Source of the DNA: an uncultured Acidobacteriota bacterium
GTDB taxonomy: Bacteria > Acidobacteriota > Vicinamibacteria > Fen-336
Length of the DNA: 64,000 bases
Reading direction: 5' to 3'
Assembly (NCBI GenBank): GCA_964442185.1
Contig: CAYTWT010000293.1
Coordinates: 17,902 to 81,901 of the forward strand
Made by a program: the position numbers and the translations under genes. The notes beneath the pieces are model-generated. The model saw only the letters and a program-made list of their open reading frames with translations, ran no database searches and had not been told where the DNA came from. This document shows, piece by piece, positions 19,044-27,396 of this stretch (position 1 is the stretch's first letter; every line of letters starts with the position of its first letter).

Positions 19044-19937
19044 ATGCTGCTCCTGCGGGCCCTCGCGTACTTCGTGGAGGAGGCGTTCACCAGCCTCTGG
19101 CGGAGCCGGCTCATCAACGCGCTTTCGATCGGCACCATCGGTGTCAGCCTGTTCGTGCTCGGCGCGTTCCTGACCGTGGCGAGCAACCTGAATGCGGTCG
19201 TCACGCGCTGGACGCAGAAGGTGCAGGTGACGTTCTACCTCGAAGACGGCCTCGAGCCACGGATTCGCGAGATGTTTGAAAGCCGGCTCAAGGACGATCC
19301 CGCCGTGGAGAGCCTGGCGAGCGTGAGCCGGCAGGCGGCTCTGGATCGGTTTAGAGCGCTGTTCCGCGATCTGCGCGCCTTGCCCGACGACCTCGGCGAG
19401 AACCCGTTCCCGGAATCGCTCGAGGTGACAGTCAAGGCGGGGCACCAGTCGCCCGAGGAGATCGGCCGCTTCGTGGCCGCTTTCGGAGGGGCGGCCGGCG
19501 TCGAGGAGGTGCAGTACGACCTGCTGTGGATCGAGCGACTCGCAACGGTGGTGCGTTTGGTGCGTGGCCTGGGCGGCGTGCTCGGCGGGATCCTCGCCCT
19601 CGCCAGCATCTTCACGATCTCGAATGTGATCCGCCTGACTGTCTATGCTCGCCAGGACGAACTCGACATCATGCGCCTGGTGGGCGCGACGCGGGCCTAC
19701 GTGCGCGGGCCGTTCATCGTCGAAGGCATGCTGCAGGGAGGGCTCGGCGGCCTCGTGGCGGTGGGCCTGCTCTGGGGCGCACTGCGCTTCGTCTCGCGCG
19801 ACGTGCTGGCCGCCTCGGAGTTGCTGGGCCGCGCTGCGGTCTTCCTGCCCGGGGAATTGAGCGTCGCGATCGTGCTGGGTGGGATGACGGTCGGGCTGGT
19901 CGGAAGCCTCGTGAGCCTTGGCCGCAGCCAGGTGTAG
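19044..19937 (+). CDS. ftsX: Cell-division permease-like protein FtsX
   Basis: FtsX-family N-terminus, periplasmic loop, 4 TM; RLV conserved region IRLTVYARQDELDIMRLVGAT. Confidence 0.85.
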   Translation: MLLLRALAYFVEEAFTSLWRSRLINALSIGTIGVSLFVLGAFLTVASNLNAVVTRWTQKVQVTFYLEDGLEPRIREMFESRLKDDPAVESLASVSRQAALDRFRALFRDLRALPDDLGENPFPESLEVTVKAGHQSPEEIGRFVAAFGGAAGVEEVQYDLLWIERLATVVRLVRGLGGVLGGILALASIFTISNVIRLTVYARQDELDIMRLVGATRAYVRGPFIVEGMLQGGLGGLVAVGLLWGALRFVSRDVLAASELLGRAAVFLPGELSVAIVLGGMTVGLVGSLVSLGRSQV

Positions 19938-19945
19938 GGCCGTCT

Positions 19946-20707
19946 CTAGAAGGTGTAGGTTCGGCCCTGCACCATGACGTGCAGGTTACGGATCTTCAGC
20001 GCTTTCAGCTCGCGCTTGATCACAGCCAGGTGCTTGGGCTTGCAGCCGTAAATGTAGACCGGCACGTCCCGCTTGAGCTTCTTTAGTTCGAGCTCCAGCA
20101 TCCAAGGCGTCAGGTGGCCGGAGACCTTGGCCAGTTCCCTCAGTTCGTTGGGGAAGGAACACTCCGTGATCACGCCCTTCAGGCGCTTGGTGTTGTTGGT
20201 GATCTCCCAGAAGCGATGCGTTGGCCCCGTGTCGCTCGAGAAGGCGAGCGCGCCCTTCTTGTCCTCGAGGATGTAGCCCGCGGTCGGCACGCTATGCGAG
20301 ACGTGGACCGCGCGAATCCTGAGGCCGTTCACGACGAAGGGCTCCTCGGGCTGGACCTCGACGAGCTTCAAGACCGGGGTCATGTCGTTGGGGAGGCAGG
20401 TAAAGTCGGGCCAGGTGTGATTGTTGAAGAGATGATTCCGCATCGACGCGACGACCTCGGGGATCGCGTAGATGCGTAGCGCGAAACCAGGTGCCGTGAA
20501 GTTGTTGTCGATCAGAAACGGGAGGGTGCAGGTGTGATCCAGGTGCGAGTGCGAGATGAGGATGTCCTTGACGCGCTCCTGCTCACGCAGTGACAGCGCG
20601 TTCGAGACCCAGCCGGCGTCGAGAGCAAGCGTGTCGTTCACGAGGAACGACGTCATGCCGTGGCCCGGGATGTTGCCCCCGTAGCACCCAAGAGCTCTGA
20701 GCTTCAT
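19946..20707 (-). CDS. Class II 3',5'-cyclic-nucleotide phosphodiesterase (metallo-beta-lactamase fold)
   Basis: HxHLDH signature ISHSHLDHTC; ~58% GC versus ~70% flank. Confidence 0.7.
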   Translation of the reverse strand: MKLRALGCYGGNIPGHGMTSFLVNDTLALDAGWVSNALSLREQERVKDILISHSHLDHTCTLPFLIDNNFTAPGFALRIYAIPEVVASMRNHLFNNHTWPDFTCLPNDMTPVLKLVEVQPEEPFVVNGLRIRAVHVSHSVPTAGYILEDKKGALAFSSDTGPTHRFWEITNNTKRLKGVITECSFPNELRELAKVSGHLTPWMLELELKKLKRDVPVYIYGCKPKHLAVIKRELKALKIRNLHVMVQGRTYTF

Positions 20708-20934
20708 GCGCGCCTAGGGCTCACAGCCCTGCCGCCGCGAGGCCTCGTCTTCCATGCTGTTACGTCCCAAGTCTCTCATCTTTCGGCGGTTACTGGGCAG
20801 TAGCTCAGGGACGGTAGCACGCGCTCTCGGGAAGTGTCAAGTGTACGGCGCACTGCGCCACGCCGCGCTGGGCACGGCTCATACAATGGTTGGTATGTTG
20901 CTGCGTAAGATCCCCGAGGGATTGTACTTTTCCC

Positions 20935-20964
20935 TTGACACGCCAAAGGGCCGATCCGTAAACT
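20935..20964 (+). promoter_or_regulatory. Candidate sigma-70 promoter TTGACA-N18-TAAACT
   Basis: Consensus -35 hexamer, TAnnnT -10, in 507-bp lower-GC intergenic region. Confidence 0.35.
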
Positions 20965-20971
20965 CGACGCA

Positions 20972-21200
20972 CGCGAGAAAGGAGGTGGTCCAGTGGACAG
21001 TAGCAAACCCCGCGAGGTGGCTGACGCCTAGGTCATAAGCCGAGCGAATCCATCCTGAATCGCTTCAACTGGATGCCTCCAAGCCGGGTCGCAGGATCGG
21101 TCCCGCGAAATCGGAAAGAGGCCCGCTAGGCCGTAGCCGACCTGGCGAATCCCAACAGCGCACCGGGCCCTGGGGAGTTGGTGTACTCTCCAGGGTTTTC
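20972..21200 (+). ncRNA. Candidate ~230-nt small transcript (sRNA or small-protein mRNA) bounded by promoter and intrinsic terminator; contains SD AAAGGAGGTG + GTG-initiated 12-codon ORF (20993..21031)
   Basis: Promoter at 20935-20964, perfect SD at 20978-20987, 12-codon ORF, terminator hairpin at 21168-21199. Confidence 0.3.
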
Positions 21201-21210
21201 GTGTTTCTGG
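21168..21210 (+). terminator. Rho-independent terminator: CCCTGGGGAG-loop-CTCTCCAGGG followed by TTTTCGTGTTTC
   Basis: GC stem plus U-tract on + strand only (A-tract precedes on - strand, so not the OPT terminator). Confidence 0.45.
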
Positions 21211-21214
21211 CAGC

Positions 21215-23362
21215 CTACTTCGCGCTGTCGAGCGGCTTGCGCGCGAAGTGGTAGAGGGAGAAAGCGAGCGCCGCGAAAGCGAGGATCCCGACCAGTGCGC
21301 TATCGTGGATGGCAGGCAGGGCCGCGCCTAGATCGATCGCTGCCTTGGGCAGCCATTCCCACTTCTCGGCGAGCTTGACGACGATCCCGAGCAGACCCAC
21401 GATGCCGCCCGCGGCGATGAGGCCGCTGGCATAGAGAGCGCCCGGGCTCGCCTCGTCGTCGTGCTTCTTCTCCTGGCCGCGCTCCACGAGCCAGCGCACG
21501 AGCCCACCGCAGAAGATCGCCGCGGTCGTGCCGATGGACAGGTAGGAGCCGACGGCGAAGCTCAGCGAGCGGATCCCGAGCAACTCGACGCCGATCACGA
21601 GAAAGACGCCAAGGAACACGAGTCCCCACGGCAGCCGTCGGTCGAGGATGCCGCGGATCACGACCGACATGAGGCGCGCCTGCGGCGCCGGAGCCTCCTG
21701 GCTGCCGATGCCCTGCACCCATTGAATCTCGATGCGCCCGGTCGCGGGATTGAACAGATAGGTTCCCTCGGGGATGGTCGGCGAACCGAGCACGTTGAGC
21801 AGCTTGTAGCTGTGCCCTTCGTAGCTGTAGGACTCCTCCAGGACGCTCACGCCCTCGGGAAGCTGCGCGGCGTCTACGGCGATGTCGGCTGGGACGTATT
21901 TCTCGAGCCCCTTGTTGACCGCGAGCAGCGTCACGCCGATCACGAACGAGGACGCGAGCACGCCCAGGAAGAGGCCTAGCTGCTGCGCTGACGGCGTGGC
22001 GCCCACCAGGTAGCCCGTTTTCAGGTCTTGCGAGGTGTTGCCGGCGTTGGCGGCGGCGATGCACACCGTGCCGCCGATCATCAGGGCGAGCGCGCCGTAG
22101 GCGCCGCTCGTCCAGCCTTGCAACAGGAAGAGCCCGCACGTCGCCATCAGGGTAGCGATCGCCATCCCTGAGATCGGGTTCGAGGAGGTGCCGATCAGCC
22201 CGACGAGCCGCGAGGACACGGTGACGAACAGGAAGCCGAAGATCACGATCAGGATGGACGCCAGCAGGTTGTGCAACGCGCTCGTGTGTGCCCCGGGCAC
22301 CGGCTTGAACGTGAGCAGCAGCCACATCGCGACGACGATCGCGGCGGAGCCTGCCAGCACGACGGTCATCGGCAAATCGCGCGCCGTGCGACCCACGCTC
22401 GGCGCCGCCTGGGGCGAGCGACTCTTGCGCAGGTCGGCCGCGCCGGCCTTGAGCGCGGCGATGATGGTGGGTAGCGTGCGCGCCAGCGTGATGAGCCCGG
22501 CGGCCGCCACCGCGCCGGCGCCGATGTAGCGGATGTAGAAGTTCCACATCTCGCTCGAGGTCATGTCCGCGATTGGCTTGACGCTCGGGTAGATCGGCGT
22601 CGGCACCATGCTGCCGAAGAACTTGATCGTGGGCATCATCACGAGCCAGGAGAAGACGCCGCCCGAGAAGATCACGCCGGCGATCTTCGGCCCGATGATG
22701 TAGCCGACGCCCAGGTACTCCGAGGTGGTCGCCGCGCGCAGCGACGCTCCCGGCAGCCACTTCGGGTCGTAGGTGGGGATCGGATTCAGCACCGCCAGCG
22801 CGTTCTCGTTCTGGAACACCGTGTACAGACTGCCCAGGCCGAGGCCGTAGAAGACCCGGCTCGCGAATGAGCCGCCCTTCTCGCCCGCGATCAACACGTC
22901 GGCGCAAGCGGTGCCCTCGGGATAGAGCAGGTTGCCGTGCTCCTTGACGATCAGTTGGCGCCGCAGCGGGATCATAAACAGTACGCCCAGGATGCCGCCG
23001 ATCATGGCGAGCAGCAGGATGCGCGTGTACTCGAGCGGGAAGCCCAGGAAGATCAGCGCCGGCAGCGTGAAGATGACCCCGCCCGCCACCGACTCGCCCG
23101 CGGAGCCCGTGGTCTGGACCAGGTTGTTCTCGAGGATGCTGGCCTTGCCGAGGGCCCGCAGCAAGCTGATCGAGAGCACGGCGATCGGGATCGAGGCCGC
23201 GACCGTCAGGCCCGCACGCAGGCCCACGTAGACCGTCACGGCGCCAAAGACGATACCGAACAGCATCCCGAGAATGACAGCCCGGGGCGTGAACTCGGGC
23301 ACGTTCGCCGTGTCGGCGATGTAGGGCTTGAACTCGGCGGCCTGGGGTTTCTCTTCAGCCAT
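21215..23362 (-). CDS. OPT-family oligopeptide transporter
   Basis: 715 aa, ~16 TM, OPT-family conserved segments. Confidence 0.85.
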   Translation of the reverse strand: MAEEKPQAAEFKPYIADTANVPEFTPRAVILGMLFGIVFGAVTVYVGLRAGLTVAASIPIAVLSISLLRALGKASILENNLVQTTGSAGESVAGGVIFTLPALIFLGFPLEYTRILLLAMIGGILGVLFMIPLRRQLIVKEHGNLLYPEGTACADVLIAGEKGGSFASRVFYGLGLGSLYTVFQNENALAVLNPIPTYDPKWLPGASLRAATTSEYLGVGYIIGPKIAGVIFSGGVFSWLVMMPTIKFFGSMVPTPIYPSVKPIADMTSSEMWNFYIRYIGAGAVAAAGLITLARTLPTIIAALKAGAADLRKSRSPQAAPSVGRTARDLPMTVVLAGSAAIVVAMWLLLTFKPVPGAHTSALHNLLASILIVIFGFLFVTVSSRLVGLIGTSSNPISGMAIATLMATCGLFLLQGWTSGAYGALALMIGGTVCIAAANAGNTSQDLKTGYLVGATPSAQQLGLFLGVLASSFVIGVTLLAVNKGLEKYVPADIAVDAAQLPEGVSVLEESYSYEGHSYKLLNVLGSPTIPEGTYLFNPATGRIEIQWVQGIGSQEAPAPQARLMSVVIRGILDRRLPWGLVFLGVFLVIGVELLGIRSLSFAVGSYLSIGTTAAIFCGGLVRWLVERGQEKKHDDEASPGALYASGLIAAGGIVGLLGIVVKLAEKWEWLPKAAIDLGAALPAIHDSALVGILAFAALAFSLYHFARKPLDSAK

Positions 23363-23411
23363 CCTCTGCTCCTCTCACGCCTGTTTGGAAGTATGGGATT
23401 ATACTCGGCCC

Positions 23412-24602
23412 ATGGTGCGGCGGCGGGCATCAGGCCTGCTCCTGATGGCATTCTTTGTAGCCGTCGCGGTCTTTCCCCAGGAACGCGCCTCGCGCTACGA
23501 GATGCAGTACGGGGAGCCGGTCGAAGTGTCGATCTCCGATCTTGCCCAAAACCCCTCTTCCTACGAGAACCGCTCGGTGCGGACGCGCGGACGGCTCGAA
23601 CTCGAGGCCTCGGGATCGTTCCACACGTATGCGATCCGCAACAACTTCGGCGACAAGGTTCGCGTGGCGCCGGTCTCCGAGGTCGCTGCGGCATGGGACT
23701 CCGAGGTCCTGACCATGATCGGCCGCGATCTCGACGTCACCGGCGTGTTCCTCAGGGCCACGTCGCAGCAACTCTCGAGCGCGGGGTCGGGTGGCACCGG
23801 CACCATCCAGTTCTGGACGTTCCTGGGCGAGGCGCCCGAGATCAAGGACGACGCGAAGGTGCCGGTTGCCACTCTCGAGCAGCTCGCCACGAACCCGGCT
23901 CGTTTCGAGGGGCGCCAGCTCAAGGTGATCGGCCAGTTTCGCGGCCGCAATCTCTTCGGCGATCTCCCGCCCAGCACGCAAACGAGCCGCGCCGACTGGG
24001 TCGTGAAGGACGACGTCTACGCACTCTGGATCACCGGCCGCAAACCCAAGGGTGAGGGCTTCGAGCTCGACCCCGGCCTCAAGCGCGACACCGGCAAGTG
24101 GCTGGAGGTGACCGGCCGCGTCGACGTACGCCGCGGCTTCGCCTACCTGACGGCGCAGCGCGTCGCCCTCAGCCTGCCGCCGACCCCCACGGCTCGAGTC
24201 GAGCCGCCCACGCCTCCGCCTGAGCGCCCGAAGCTGCCGCCGATGGTGATCTTCGCCCTGCCGCTCGACGGCGAGAGCGACGTGCCGGGCGAGGCGCGTT
24301 TCGCCGTCCAGTTCAGCAAGGACATGGATGAGGACAGCTTGAAGGGACGCGTCGTGCTGCGCTACGCCGGCCGGCCGCAACCGGGCGACCGCGACCTCGA
24401 CGGCGTCGTGATGCGCTACGACGGTGGCCGCCGCGCGCTCATCATCGACCCTGGCGATGTGCTTCGCCCTGGGCGCCAGGTCGAACTCCTGCTGCTGCCA
24501 GGGATCGTCGACTCAGACGGTGTGCCGCTGGCTCCGCGCCAGGGCCCGCTCCCGGAAGGCGCCACGGTCGTCGACGCTCTGCACTGGCGAATCAGGCTCT
24601 GA
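23412..24602 (+). CDS. Secreted/membrane-anchored hypothetical protein with C-terminal Ig-like/big domain
   Basis: Start at ATG MVRRRASGLLLMAFFVAVAVF (signal anchor); Pro-rich linker PPTPTARVEPPTPPPERPKLPP. Confidence 0.5.
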   Translation: MVRRRASGLLLMAFFVAVAVFPQERASRYEMQYGEPVEVSISDLAQNPSSYENRSVRTRGRLELEASGSFHTYAIRNNFGDKVRVAPVSEVAAAWDSEVLTMIGRDLDVTGVFLRATSQQLSSAGSGGTGTIQFWTFLGEAPEIKDDAKVPVATLEQLATNPARFEGRQLKVIGQFRGRNLFGDLPPSTQTSRADWVVKDDVYALWITGRKPKGEGFELDPGLKRDTGKWLEVTGRVDVRRGFAYLTAQRVALSLPPTPTARVEPPTPPPERPKLPPMVIFALPLDGESDVPGEARFAVQFSKDMDEDSLKGRVVLRYAGRPQPGDRDLDGVVMRYDGGRRALIIDPGDVLRPGRQVELLLLPGIVDSDGVPLAPRQGPLPEGATVVDALHWRIRL

Positions 24603-26520: not shown

Positions 26521-27366
26521 TCATGAGTGGGACTTTCCTGTCAAGGAGAGCACCCTGGCGTAGACCTCGCGGGCAGGCAAGCCCAGGGCCCGGGCCACTT
26601 CCTTGACGGCTTCCCGACGGGTCTTTCCGCCTTCGACGAGGCGGGAGAACAGGGCCTCGGCAGATTCCTGGGGACCGGACGCTTTGGACGCTCCCGCCAA
26701 CACCAGGACGATCTCGCCTTTGACCGTTTGGCGGCTCGAAAGGCCCGCGCGGAGCGTCGAAAGCCGCCCGCGCAGGTGTTCCTCGTGCAGCTTTGTCAAC
26801 TCGCGGCCCAGGAACGCCTCGCGATCGCCGAAGGCCGCCTGCAGATCGGCCAGAGTCGCGAGAATACGCACCGGAGATTCGTAGAACACCAGCGTCTCAC
26901 GAGCGCTCGTGAACTCCGCGATCGCCTTCTGGCGCGCGCTGGCCTTGGCCGGGAGGAAGCCCACGAAGAGAAAGCGGTCCGTGGGGAGGCCCGCGACCGA
27001 AAGCGCGGCCACGGCCGCGCTGGCGCCTGGCACAGGTAGCACGCACAGGCCGGCGGCCCGCGCTTCCCGCACGAGCCGGAAGCCGGGGTCGGAGATGCCG
27101 GGCGTGCCGGCGTCCGAAACCAAGGCCACGTCATGGCCCAGGCGCAGCTCCGCCAGGATCTGCTCGCCCTTCCAGCGCTCGTTGTGCTCGAAGTAGGAGG
27201 TGGTCCTCGTCAAGATCCCATGCGCTCTCAACAGCTTGGCCGTCCGCCGAGTGTCTTCGCAGGCGATCAGGCTGGCATCGCGCAGCACCCGCAAGGCGCG
27301 CAGCGTCACGTCCTCGAGGTTGCCAAGGGGCGTCGCGACGACGTACAACCGGCCAGAAACCTCCAT
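26521..27366 (-). CDS. rsmI: 16S rRNA (cytidine1402-2'-O)-methyltransferase RsmI
   Basis: Start at internal ATG (MEVSGRLYVVATPLGNLEDVT); tetrapyrrole-methylase fold motifs. Confidence 0.85.
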   Translation of the reverse strand: MEVSGRLYVVATPLGNLEDVTLRALRVLRDASLIACEDTRRTAKLLRAHGILTRTTSYFEHNERWKGEQILAELRLGHDVALVSDAGTPGISDPGFRLVREARAAGLCVLPVPGASAAVAALSVAGLPTDRFLFVGFLPAKASARQKAIAEFTSARETLVFYESPVRILATLADLQAAFGDREAFLGRELTKLHEEHLRGRLSTLRAGLSSRQTVKGEIVLVLAGASKASGPQESAEALFSRLVEGGKTRREAVKEVARALGLPAREVYARVLSLTGKSHS

Positions 27367-27396
27367 GCCCGCCCGATCATAAGCCGAGGAGCTGGT

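Follow-up and report, generated by a model that had tools for sequence, protein, structure and literature searches.

A predicted small RNA of the rre/Ms_IGR-5 type with a 16S rRNA-complementary tract and a 12-codon open reading frame in an uncultured Acidobacteriota bacterium

Small RNAs (sRNAs) with a 15-18-nt complement to the 3' tail of 16S rRNA have been noticed three separate times, as Ms_IGR-5, as CC2171 and as rreB/rreR, and were filed as lineage-specific. The subject of this report is a predicted sRNA gene that resembles them, located at 20935-21210 on the + strand of a 64,000-nt stretch of DNA from an uncultured Acidobacteriota bacterium (contig CAYTWT010000293.1, positions 17,902 to 81,901), referred to below, at its full length, as the window. 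The closest described system is rreB/rreR of Alphaproteobacteria. The rreB gene of Bradyrhizobiaceae encodes a stand-alone RNA of ~165 nt between a sigma-70-like promoter and a terminator, in which 17 nt perfectly complementary to the 16S tail, including the first base of a GTG start codon, precede a small open reading frame (sORF) of 14 codons (PMC5711450, Hahn et al., RNA Biol 2017). The RNA co-sediments with 30S subunits and is translated weakly, as the long Shine-Dalgarno (SD) sequence and the GTG start each suppress translation, and swapping its start codon for a stop codon extends its half-life from ~10 to ~37 min (PMC5711450). Overproduction of rreB causes no growth phenotype, and synthetic RreB and RreR peptides are unstructured (PMC5711450). 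Analogues, including rreR with 18 codons, were found in four alphaproteobacterial orders only (PMC5711450).

Of the other two families, Ms_IGR-5 (RF02471), listed in Rfam as actinobacterial, is a discrete sRNA in Streptomyces (PMC8079986, PMC8780764), and its homologues carry ribosome footprints in Mycobacterium abscessus and M. smegmatis (PMC4974804). CC2171 (RF01867) is an sRNA expressed in Caulobacter and Methylorubrum. A further point of comparison is offered by the STAB-SD 5' stabilisers of Gram-positive mRNAs such as cryIIIA, where a strong SD-like sequence near the 5' end binds 30S without a normal role in expression; these lie in the leaders of long mRNAs and are not known to have a conserved mini-ORF with a fixed stop or a conserved 3' domain. 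Literature searches by motif and peptide strings returned nothing relevant, and no link of the alphaproteobacterial rre/CC2171 RNAs to Ms_IGR-5 or to other phyla was found in the accessible literature. The wide distribution and the common fold described below do not appear in that literature.

Family membership, fold and distribution

Overall, the locus is best explained, with a probability of about 0.6, as encoding an RNA of the rre/Ms_IGR-5 type that, by analogy with rreB, would dock on the 30S subunit. No Rfam family matches at its gathering score anywhere in the 64-kb window. With Rfam run in E-value mode on the locus, the best sub-threshold match is Ms_IGR-5 (21.9 bits, E=0.007), which spans the full model from 1 to 184. 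The same model gives 47.7 bits on an Acidobacteria metagenome-assembled genome (MAG) of the window's subtype (L028) and 53.5 bits on a metagenomic locus (L163), both above the gathering score; elsewhere in the loci sample, it gives 175.8 bits in Mycobacterium and 98.5 bits in Micromonospora. In addition, a custom covariance model (R1), built from 87 relatives with the window excluded, finds the locus as its sole match in 64 kb (31.5 bits, E ~1e-6), so that the window holds one copy. R1 misplaces the 3' strand of helix P4 because of a 130-nt insert in the window, and was not used for pair counts for that reason. The required motif order and helices of Ms_IGR-5 are all present in the window, namely the SD tract, GAGGUGGC, P3, GAAUYCC, CACC and the terminator, together with P1, P2 and P4. 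From the full-length sub-threshold match, the two above-threshold relatives and the R1 match, the window element is therefore assigned, at the level of sequence, to the Ms_IGR-5 family as a divergent, sub-threshold member, in a family that is not confined to Actinobacteria. CC2171 aligns to the locus with only 13 bits (E=2.5), through the 5' tract alone, under a gathering score of 75.

The features of the locus are the following:

20935-20940, + strand: -35 box TTGACA, invariant in three metagenomic relatives (L172, L181 and L220), in which the inter-box spacer varies
20959-20964, + strand: -10 box TAAACT, invariant in the same three relatives
20972-20977, + strand: predicted 5' strand of P1, CGCGAG, pairing with 21009-21014; register set by covariation in 107 relatives
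20976-20993, + strand: 18-nt tract AGAAAGGAGGTGGTCCAG, complementary, with a single G-U pair, to the canonical 3' tail of 16S rRNA
20988-20998, + strand: predicted P2 mini-hairpin (GTCC, loop AGT, GGAC), with the GTG start codon at its tip
20993-21031, + strand: mini-ORF, GTG plus 11 codons plus TAG (V/M-DSSKPREVADA), stop TAG at 21029-21031
21009-21014, + strand: predicted 3' strand of P1, CCCGCG, from sequence and covariation
21016-21023, + strand: predicted 5' strand of the long-range helix P4, GGTGGCTG, inside the ORF and within the conserved GAGGTGGC motif
21026-21034, + strand: predicted 5' strand of P3, GCCTAGGTC, holding the stop codon and pairing with 21139-21146, one U bulged
21069-21080, + strand: lineage-specific anti-SD CTGGATGCCTCC, which can sequester the tract and does so in the minimum-free-energy fold
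21139-21146, + strand: predicted 3' strand of P3, GACCTGGC, from the Rfam alignment and sequence
21144-21153, + strand: conserved GGCGAATCCC motif, predicted 3'-side bulge between P3 and P4
21156-21164, + strand: predicted 3' strand of P4, CAGC, bulged G (G21160), CACC
21165-21210, + strand: intrinsic terminator, 14-pair stem followed by a T-run, with compensatory changes in relatives

Helices P1, P2 and P4 are backed by covariation. The alignment columns were set solely by distance from two conserved motifs, so that the alignment is independent of any structure, and the 3' strand of P4 was located with a sequence-only hidden Markov model. For P1 and P2 together, 72.4% of cells are paired, against at most 42.8% when the partners are slid, and double-change cells number 140, against 64 in shuffle controls that ignore phylogeny. 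For P4, the corresponding values are 89.8% against at most 58.5%, and 51 against 14.7. In both cases, 0 of 500 shuffles reach the observed count. In P1, a segment upstream of the SD tract pairs with the segment just before GAGGUGGC (for example CACG:CGUG, CCAGAG:CUCUGG, CGCG:CGCG and CACU:AGUG), and one of the three metagenomic relatives (L172) carries a compensatory change from G:C to A:U in this helix. In P2, GRUCC pairs with GGAY, where R covaries with Y. In P4, the partner of GGUGGCNNNN is NNNNG(N)CACC, immediately upstream of the terminator (CUGUC:GACAG, CUACG:CGUAG, CGAGC:GCUUG and CUUCC:GGAAG being examples), so that this helix closes the RNA just before the terminator. The conserved GGCGAAUCC motif forms a bulge between P3 and P4 on the opposite strand. 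As for P3, the Rfam alignment pairs GCCUAGG with CCUGGC, and RNAalifold offers 21125-21131 as another partner for the 5' strand. The segment CGAAUCC...CACC resembles a T arm with an acceptor strand behind it, and was for that reason considered as a tRNA-like element or T-loop; this reading was dropped because the loop has 5-6 nt, a linker is present and the RNA continues into the terminator; neither Rfam nor ARAGORN lends it support.

The distribution of the family was sampled with a two-motif pattern (AAGGAGGTGRTCC, 15-45 nt, GAGGTGGC) in one genome per GTDB species, and with a second scan of metagenomes. The former gave at least 120 matches, and the distribution from both scans is a sample and hence a lower bound; since the pattern fixed the two motifs, their own conservation is not measurable from these matches. 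Among the matches listed, most belong to Actinomycetota, and the others come from several orders of Acidobacteriota, Planctomycetota, Spirochaetota (Leptospira), Desulfobacterota (Syntrophobacter), Alphaproteobacteria, Krumholzibacteriota (Krumholzibacteriia), Eisenbacteria and Sumerlaeota. The nearest named relatives of the window element among them are Acidobacteriota and Eisenbacteria MAGs. One match lies in a coding region and was set aside as a false positive. Taken together, these data suggest that an Ms_IGR-5-type family with a common, covariation-supported fold is present in at least nine bacterial phyla.

In the metagenomes, copies of the rreB type (VSYTKRCHLAGIAR), of the rreR type (VSRVILERGVGT...) and of the CC2171 type (VSHC...WIL..., 84-89 bits on RF01867) were found beside the window's own type. 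One genomic match, from Seohaeicola (L033), which is itself of the rreR type, combines the two-motif architecture with 40.9 bits (E=2.5e-7) on the CC2171 model. Judging from these sequences, this locus probably links the window-type/Ms_IGR-5 group to the CC2171 group, and the three separately named families are probably related. Apart from these, an abundant metagenomic type, present at no fewer than 15 loci, consists of GAG-AAGGAGGTGATCCA-GTG and a 6-codon ORF (VRYGLR) followed almost at once by a strong terminator, and looks like a minimal form of the same docking-tract idea.

Docking tract and mini-ORF

The sequence AAAGGAGGTG at 20978-20987 had been described in the original prediction as a strong SD about 15 nt after the -10 box. 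Its strength and position stand, but the gap is 13 nt, and the fact that, like its counterpart in rreB, it belongs to a longer complement of the 16S tail, here of 18 nt, had gone unrecognised. The canonical tail used here, CUGGAUCACCUCCUUUCU, is the one we take from the standard universal 3'-end primer sequence. G20993 is both the final base of the tract AGAAAGGAGGTGGTCCAG and the one that opens the GTG start, which lies 5 nt past AAAGGAGGTG. The 13-mer AAGGAGGTGRTCC occurs once in 64 kb, compared with 0.08 times in shuffles; a similar site at 27194, with one mismatch, lies inside a coding region and was discarded as a chance match. Across the family the complement spans 15-18 nt, a strength well beyond that of ordinary SD sequences. 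The family fold has its AAAGGAGGUG core looped out, with P1 on one side and P2 on the other and the start codon at the tip of P2; the pairings of these two helices thus leave the core GAAAGGAGGUG as an 11-nt bulge.

The window's lineage additionally holds an anti-SD, CTGGATGCCTCC, in the middle domain. This segment is conserved in the three metagenomic relatives amid variable flanks, and RNAalifold predicts a 17-pair helix for the sequestering interaction. A universal anti-SD in the middle domain was considered and rejected, as just 14% of 91 elements beat 95% of shuffles. The feature is lineage-specific, being found in Acidimicrobiia, Pseudonocardiaceae and the window's lineage.

The 12-codon ORF from GTG at 20993 to TAG at 21031 is present as the original prediction had it, and was compared in 117 distinct elements among the matches listed. 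A start codon follows GGAGG by 7-14 nt in 117/117 copies (49 ATG, 40 TTG, 19 GTG, 8 CTG and 1 ATC), and the stop begins exactly 15 nt past the G of GAGGUGGC in 112 of them (87 TAG, 16 TGA and 14 TAA over the whole set). The ORF is 12 codons long in 75/117 copies, with a range of 11-19. Every frame passes through P2 and P1 along their 3' strands and through P4 along its 5' strand, and the stop position common to the 112 copies falls at or beside P3's 5' strand. The second motif's GAGGUG has its end 6-7 nt upstream of the final sense codon. In the three metagenomic relatives the ORF has 13 codons, and a 3-nt indel keeps the frame.

The sequence of the peptide follows the helices. Per-nucleotide variation tracks the paired regions rather than codon position, without three-base periodicity, and the residue before E-V-A (R, L, S, P, T or C) varies along with P1 covariation. 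In two lineages the motif is read in another frame, yet a stop is found nearby. Because the peptide changes wherever the helices covary, it is the act of translation, with its start and stop sites, that looks selected, and the peptide mostly not. The CTG copies all come from Acidimicrobiia, where CTG is the sole in-frame start at the right spacing at eight loci; either CTG is used for initiation there, or these copies are no longer translated and yet retain the frame and the stop.

Gene boundaries, mechanism and alternatives

All the features listed in the original prediction are present on the + strand within 20935-21210, and its proposal of a stand-alone sRNA or micro-ORF gene is supported by relatives in which locus, promoter and terminator are all conserved. 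This interval is thus predicted to be a gene that stands alone, with a sigma-70-type promoter and an intrinsic terminator of its own, and to encode an RNA of ~235 nt. The two promoter boxes, separated by 18 nt, form the sole sigma-70-like match in 19500-23500, where shuffles average 0.4. Transcription is predicted to start at ~20969-20972; the alignment to Ms_IGR-5 begins at 20971 and that to R1 at 20969. At the other end, the terminator hairpin at 21165-21198 is followed by TTTTCGTGTTTC to 21210. In the canonical sense it is oriented for the + strand, as had been claimed, because only that side has the T-run; read on the opposite strand, however, this hairpin also stands 17 nt beyond the stop of the OPT gene.

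Evidence for conservation comes from the three relatives named in the feature list, which are metagenomic and were found by a 17-nt pattern and aligned with the window; at least three such relatives exist. Their 5' domain is nearly identical to that of the window, and both promoter boxes and the terminator are retained, the stem of the latter with compensatory changes (CCCTGGGGAG/CTCTCCAGGG against CCCCGGAGGG/CCCTCCGGGG). Two Logan metagenome contigs bear an identical locus. Folding of a 243-nt RNA from the locus gives z = -2.0 against shuffles. The conservation and covariation analysis that had been suggested alongside the original prediction thus finds a conserved locus, covarying helices and the ORF in every copy compared. 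A larger overlapping ORF at 20754-21038 (94 amino acids) was rejected, as its boundaries are not conserved in relatives, and comparison with the relatives revealed no larger ORF with conserved boundaries over the region. No match to transfer-messenger RNA (tmRNA), RNase P, signal recognition particle, 6S RNA, tRNA or riboswitches was found at the locus with Rfam or ARAGORN, and ARAGORN reports no tRNA or tmRNA in the whole window; that no such RNA could be matched by eye in the original prediction agrees with these scans.

Both flanking genes are on the minus strand, and the locus is therefore divergent from one and convergent with the other. The former, at 19946-20707, encodes a class-II phosphodiesterase/MBL-fold protein, which matches the class-II cAMP phosphodiesterase family PF02112 and, among precomputed matches, the Anti-Pycsar Apyc1 family PF23023; it is possibly a cyclic-nucleotide-degrading enzyme. 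The latter, at 21215-23362, encodes an OPT oligopeptide transporter and has its end at 21215. A 12-mer, TCATAAGCCGAG, occurs twice in the window, at 21033-21044, just past the stop of the mini-ORF, and at 27377-27388, just upstream of a promoter-like TTGACA...TAGCAT that precedes a gene whose product begins VAEIKIQDGESIENALRRFKRK, which we take to be ribosomal protein S21. The repeat could be due to chance or mark a common protein-binding site.

Across the family, the genomic context was analysed at ~110 loci among the matches listed. Spurious ORFs of high GC content were removed with a filter on GC content at third codon positions (GC3). Of the downstream neighbours, 64 share the strand of the element and 45 lie on the opposite one, which is near random; no neighbour gene family is common to several phyla at these loci, and local synteny is seen solely within Actinobacteria. 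In a subset of Actinomycetota the element lies in a conserved neighbourhood, with what is presumably, from our own reading of the sequences, a Fur-family-regulator-like gene directly upstream on the other strand, followed by a YgfZ-like gene; a protein bearing the motif LSFLLGRWEGAGVGGYPTI is frequently encoded downstream. In the window's lineage the OPT gene adjoins the element and is convergent with it, both in the window and in L181, and it lies ~400 nt downstream on the same strand in four Blastocatellia MAGs, whose copies are ~40% identical to the OPT of the window. This recurrent adjacency is either ancient, with a later inversion, or reflects a functional link. Translation-related neighbours appear in a few lineages only: rpmE, for ribosomal protein L31, follows the element on the same strand at three Terriglobia/Bryobacterales loci, and in Seohaeicola a 139-amino-acid RF-1-domain protein with a GGQ motif, an ArfB-like ribosome rescue factor, is encoded after it.

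By analogy with rreB, the RNA would dock very tightly on 30S through its looped-out 16S complement, and initiation would be inefficient, with weak translation. A translating ribosome would have to unzip P2, P1 and P4, upon which the RNA would refold or be exposed to decay, so that engagement by ribosomes would set its conformation and lifetime. The peptide would be mostly a by-product of the constraints on the RNA. In the window's lineage, the conserved downstream anti-SD would add a second conformer, with the docking tract sequestered. Given its distance from the last sense codon, the GAGGUG of the second motif could re-pair with the anti-SD on a terminating ribosome. Since the peptide changes with covarying helices and its variation has no three-base periodicity, the choice left by the original prediction between a micro-protein and a dual-function sRNA shifts towards a ribosome-engaged sRNA or small mRNA, the functional micro-protein being less likely.

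Several observations weigh against an RNA of the rre/Ms_IGR-5 type. The window copy scores under the RF02471 gathering score of 45 bits, and of its P2 no more than a 4-bp hairpin is left. RNAalifold, applied to the window's lineage, favours the SD-sequestered fold over P1/P4. The 18-nt complementarity is scored against a canonical tail, the host's own 16S gene lying outside the window. The fold of rreB differs, and the analogy would cover the docking tract rather than the whole architecture, while the unzipping of helices on translation is a step that we infer. Finally, serine is found at codon 3 in 38/65 of the twelve-codon copies, encoded by both TCY and AGY, which hints at some selection on the peptide.

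This last point also fits a micro-protein gene, in which the 12-residue peptide would be functional and the RNA merely its mRNA. The retention of the ORF in all 117 copies despite varying start and stop codons and the frame-preserving indel in the window's lineage point the same way, as does the conservation of the RreB and RreR peptides within their own clades (PMC5711450). Nevertheless, a functional peptide is unlikely: the residue before E-V-A changes exactly where P1 covaries, the frame across the conserved motif is a different one in two lineages, the length ranges from 11 to 19 codons with variation that tracks helices instead of codon position, and no conserved neighbour genes at the loci analysed might modify or use the peptide. 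Moreover, the synthetic RreB and RreR peptides are unstructured and RreB overproduction has no effect on growth (PMC5711450). The same overproduction result bears on a global ribosome sponge, an RNA that would only titrate free 30S as 6S RNA titrates RNA polymerase. A complement far beyond ordinary SD strength and the position of full-length rreB on 30S subunits (PMC5711450) are what such a sponge would have, but twenty-fold overproduction of the ribosome-binding form of rreB left growth unchanged, and its authors note that ribosomes far outnumber the RNA (PMC5711450). The conserved 3' domain (P3, P4 and the GAAUCC bulge) and the fixed stop would also be superfluous for a pure sponge, which, given that domain and the rreB overexpression result, is quite improbable.

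A cis-acting leader or attenuator, in which translation of the mini-ORF would control read-through of the terminator, here antisense into the convergent OPT gene, has the classic layout of an SD, a short ORF and a terminator in its favour, together with the OPT adjacency in the window's lineage and the Blastocatellia MAGs and the rpmE and ArfB-like genes downstream of other copies. It is nonetheless very unlikely, considering that the next gene in the window is convergent, that downstream neighbours are 64 to 45 in orientation without a cross-phylum family, and that the RNA is a discrete sRNA in Streptomyces (PMC8079986, PMC8780764), in Methylorubrum as CC2171 and in Bradyrhizobium as rreB. 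For the same reason, namely the missing co-oriented gene downstream in the window and the near-random orientation in the family, the regulatory leader peptide of the original prediction is not supported.

A wider idea has to be treated as doubtful: one ancient RNA class, nearly pan-bacterial and with the 30S subunit as its ligand, would have the rre genes, CC2171 and Ms_IGR-5 as its branches. The 16S complement would capture free 30S, the mini-ORF would act as a release timer, analogous to the synthesis of product RNA (pRNA) that frees RNA polymerase from 6S RNA, and the opening of P1 and P4 would expose the GAAUCC/CACC 3' domain to a target. If true, the RNA would report free initiation capacity to the cell. 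A large fraction of soil and aquatic bacteria may have such an RNA on their ribosomes, and its predicted fold, which presents the docking tract and threads the mini-ORF through helices, offers concrete features that can be tested.

Comparison with known systems

CC2171 has a 5' end almost identical to that of the window element, GAAAGGAGGUGAUCCAGUG, and CC2171-type copies too have a mini-ORF, of 22-25 codons. In its Rfam consensus a helix likewise connects the early ORF with the region that directly precedes the terminator. However, the match to the window is confined to the first ~27 nt, and the long-range helix uses another part of the ORF. Neither GAGGUGGC nor GAAUCC was observed in those CC2171-type copies that were inspected.

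With Ms_IGR-5, the likeness extends over the full length of the alignment, in the order SD tract, GAGGUGGCUG, P3, GAAUYCC, CACC and terminator. Both have a 12-codon ORF with the same stop position, and the P1, P2 and P4 pairings hold in both groups. The differences are a truncated P2 in the window and a middle-domain insert of 108 nt, with the lineage-specific anti-SD, where the Ms_IGR-5 model has 35 nt. The RF02471 consensus contains P3 and the terminator, and P1, P2 and P4 are absent from it. As aligned in one locus (L051, 5810-6007), it pairs the SD-tract segment GGUGGU with GCUGCC and leaves AAUUCCCCGCAGUCACC single-stranded. Both this structure and the 'Actinobacteria' label look out of date, the structure because covariation supports P1, P2 and the long-range P4 instead; a revision of structure and taxonomic scope seems to be needed.

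The rre RNAs differ from the window type in their fold, as the SD of rreB pairs with an anti-SD inside the ORF, whereas the core of the window type forms the P1/P2 bulge, and in the second motif, GAGGUGGC, which in the window type forms the long-range P4. The peptides show no similarity. The gene organisation, on the other hand, is closely alike: as judged from sequence, the window holds a free-standing gene with a predicted promoter and terminator and, as with rre, the window type has no conserved genomic context across orders. Its tract, of 18 nt where rre tracts have 16-17 and the type is defined by at least 16, stands directly upstream of an sORF of 12 codons (13 in relatives; 14 or 18 in rre), and in the window, as in rreB, the 16S complement ends on the G of the GTG start codon.

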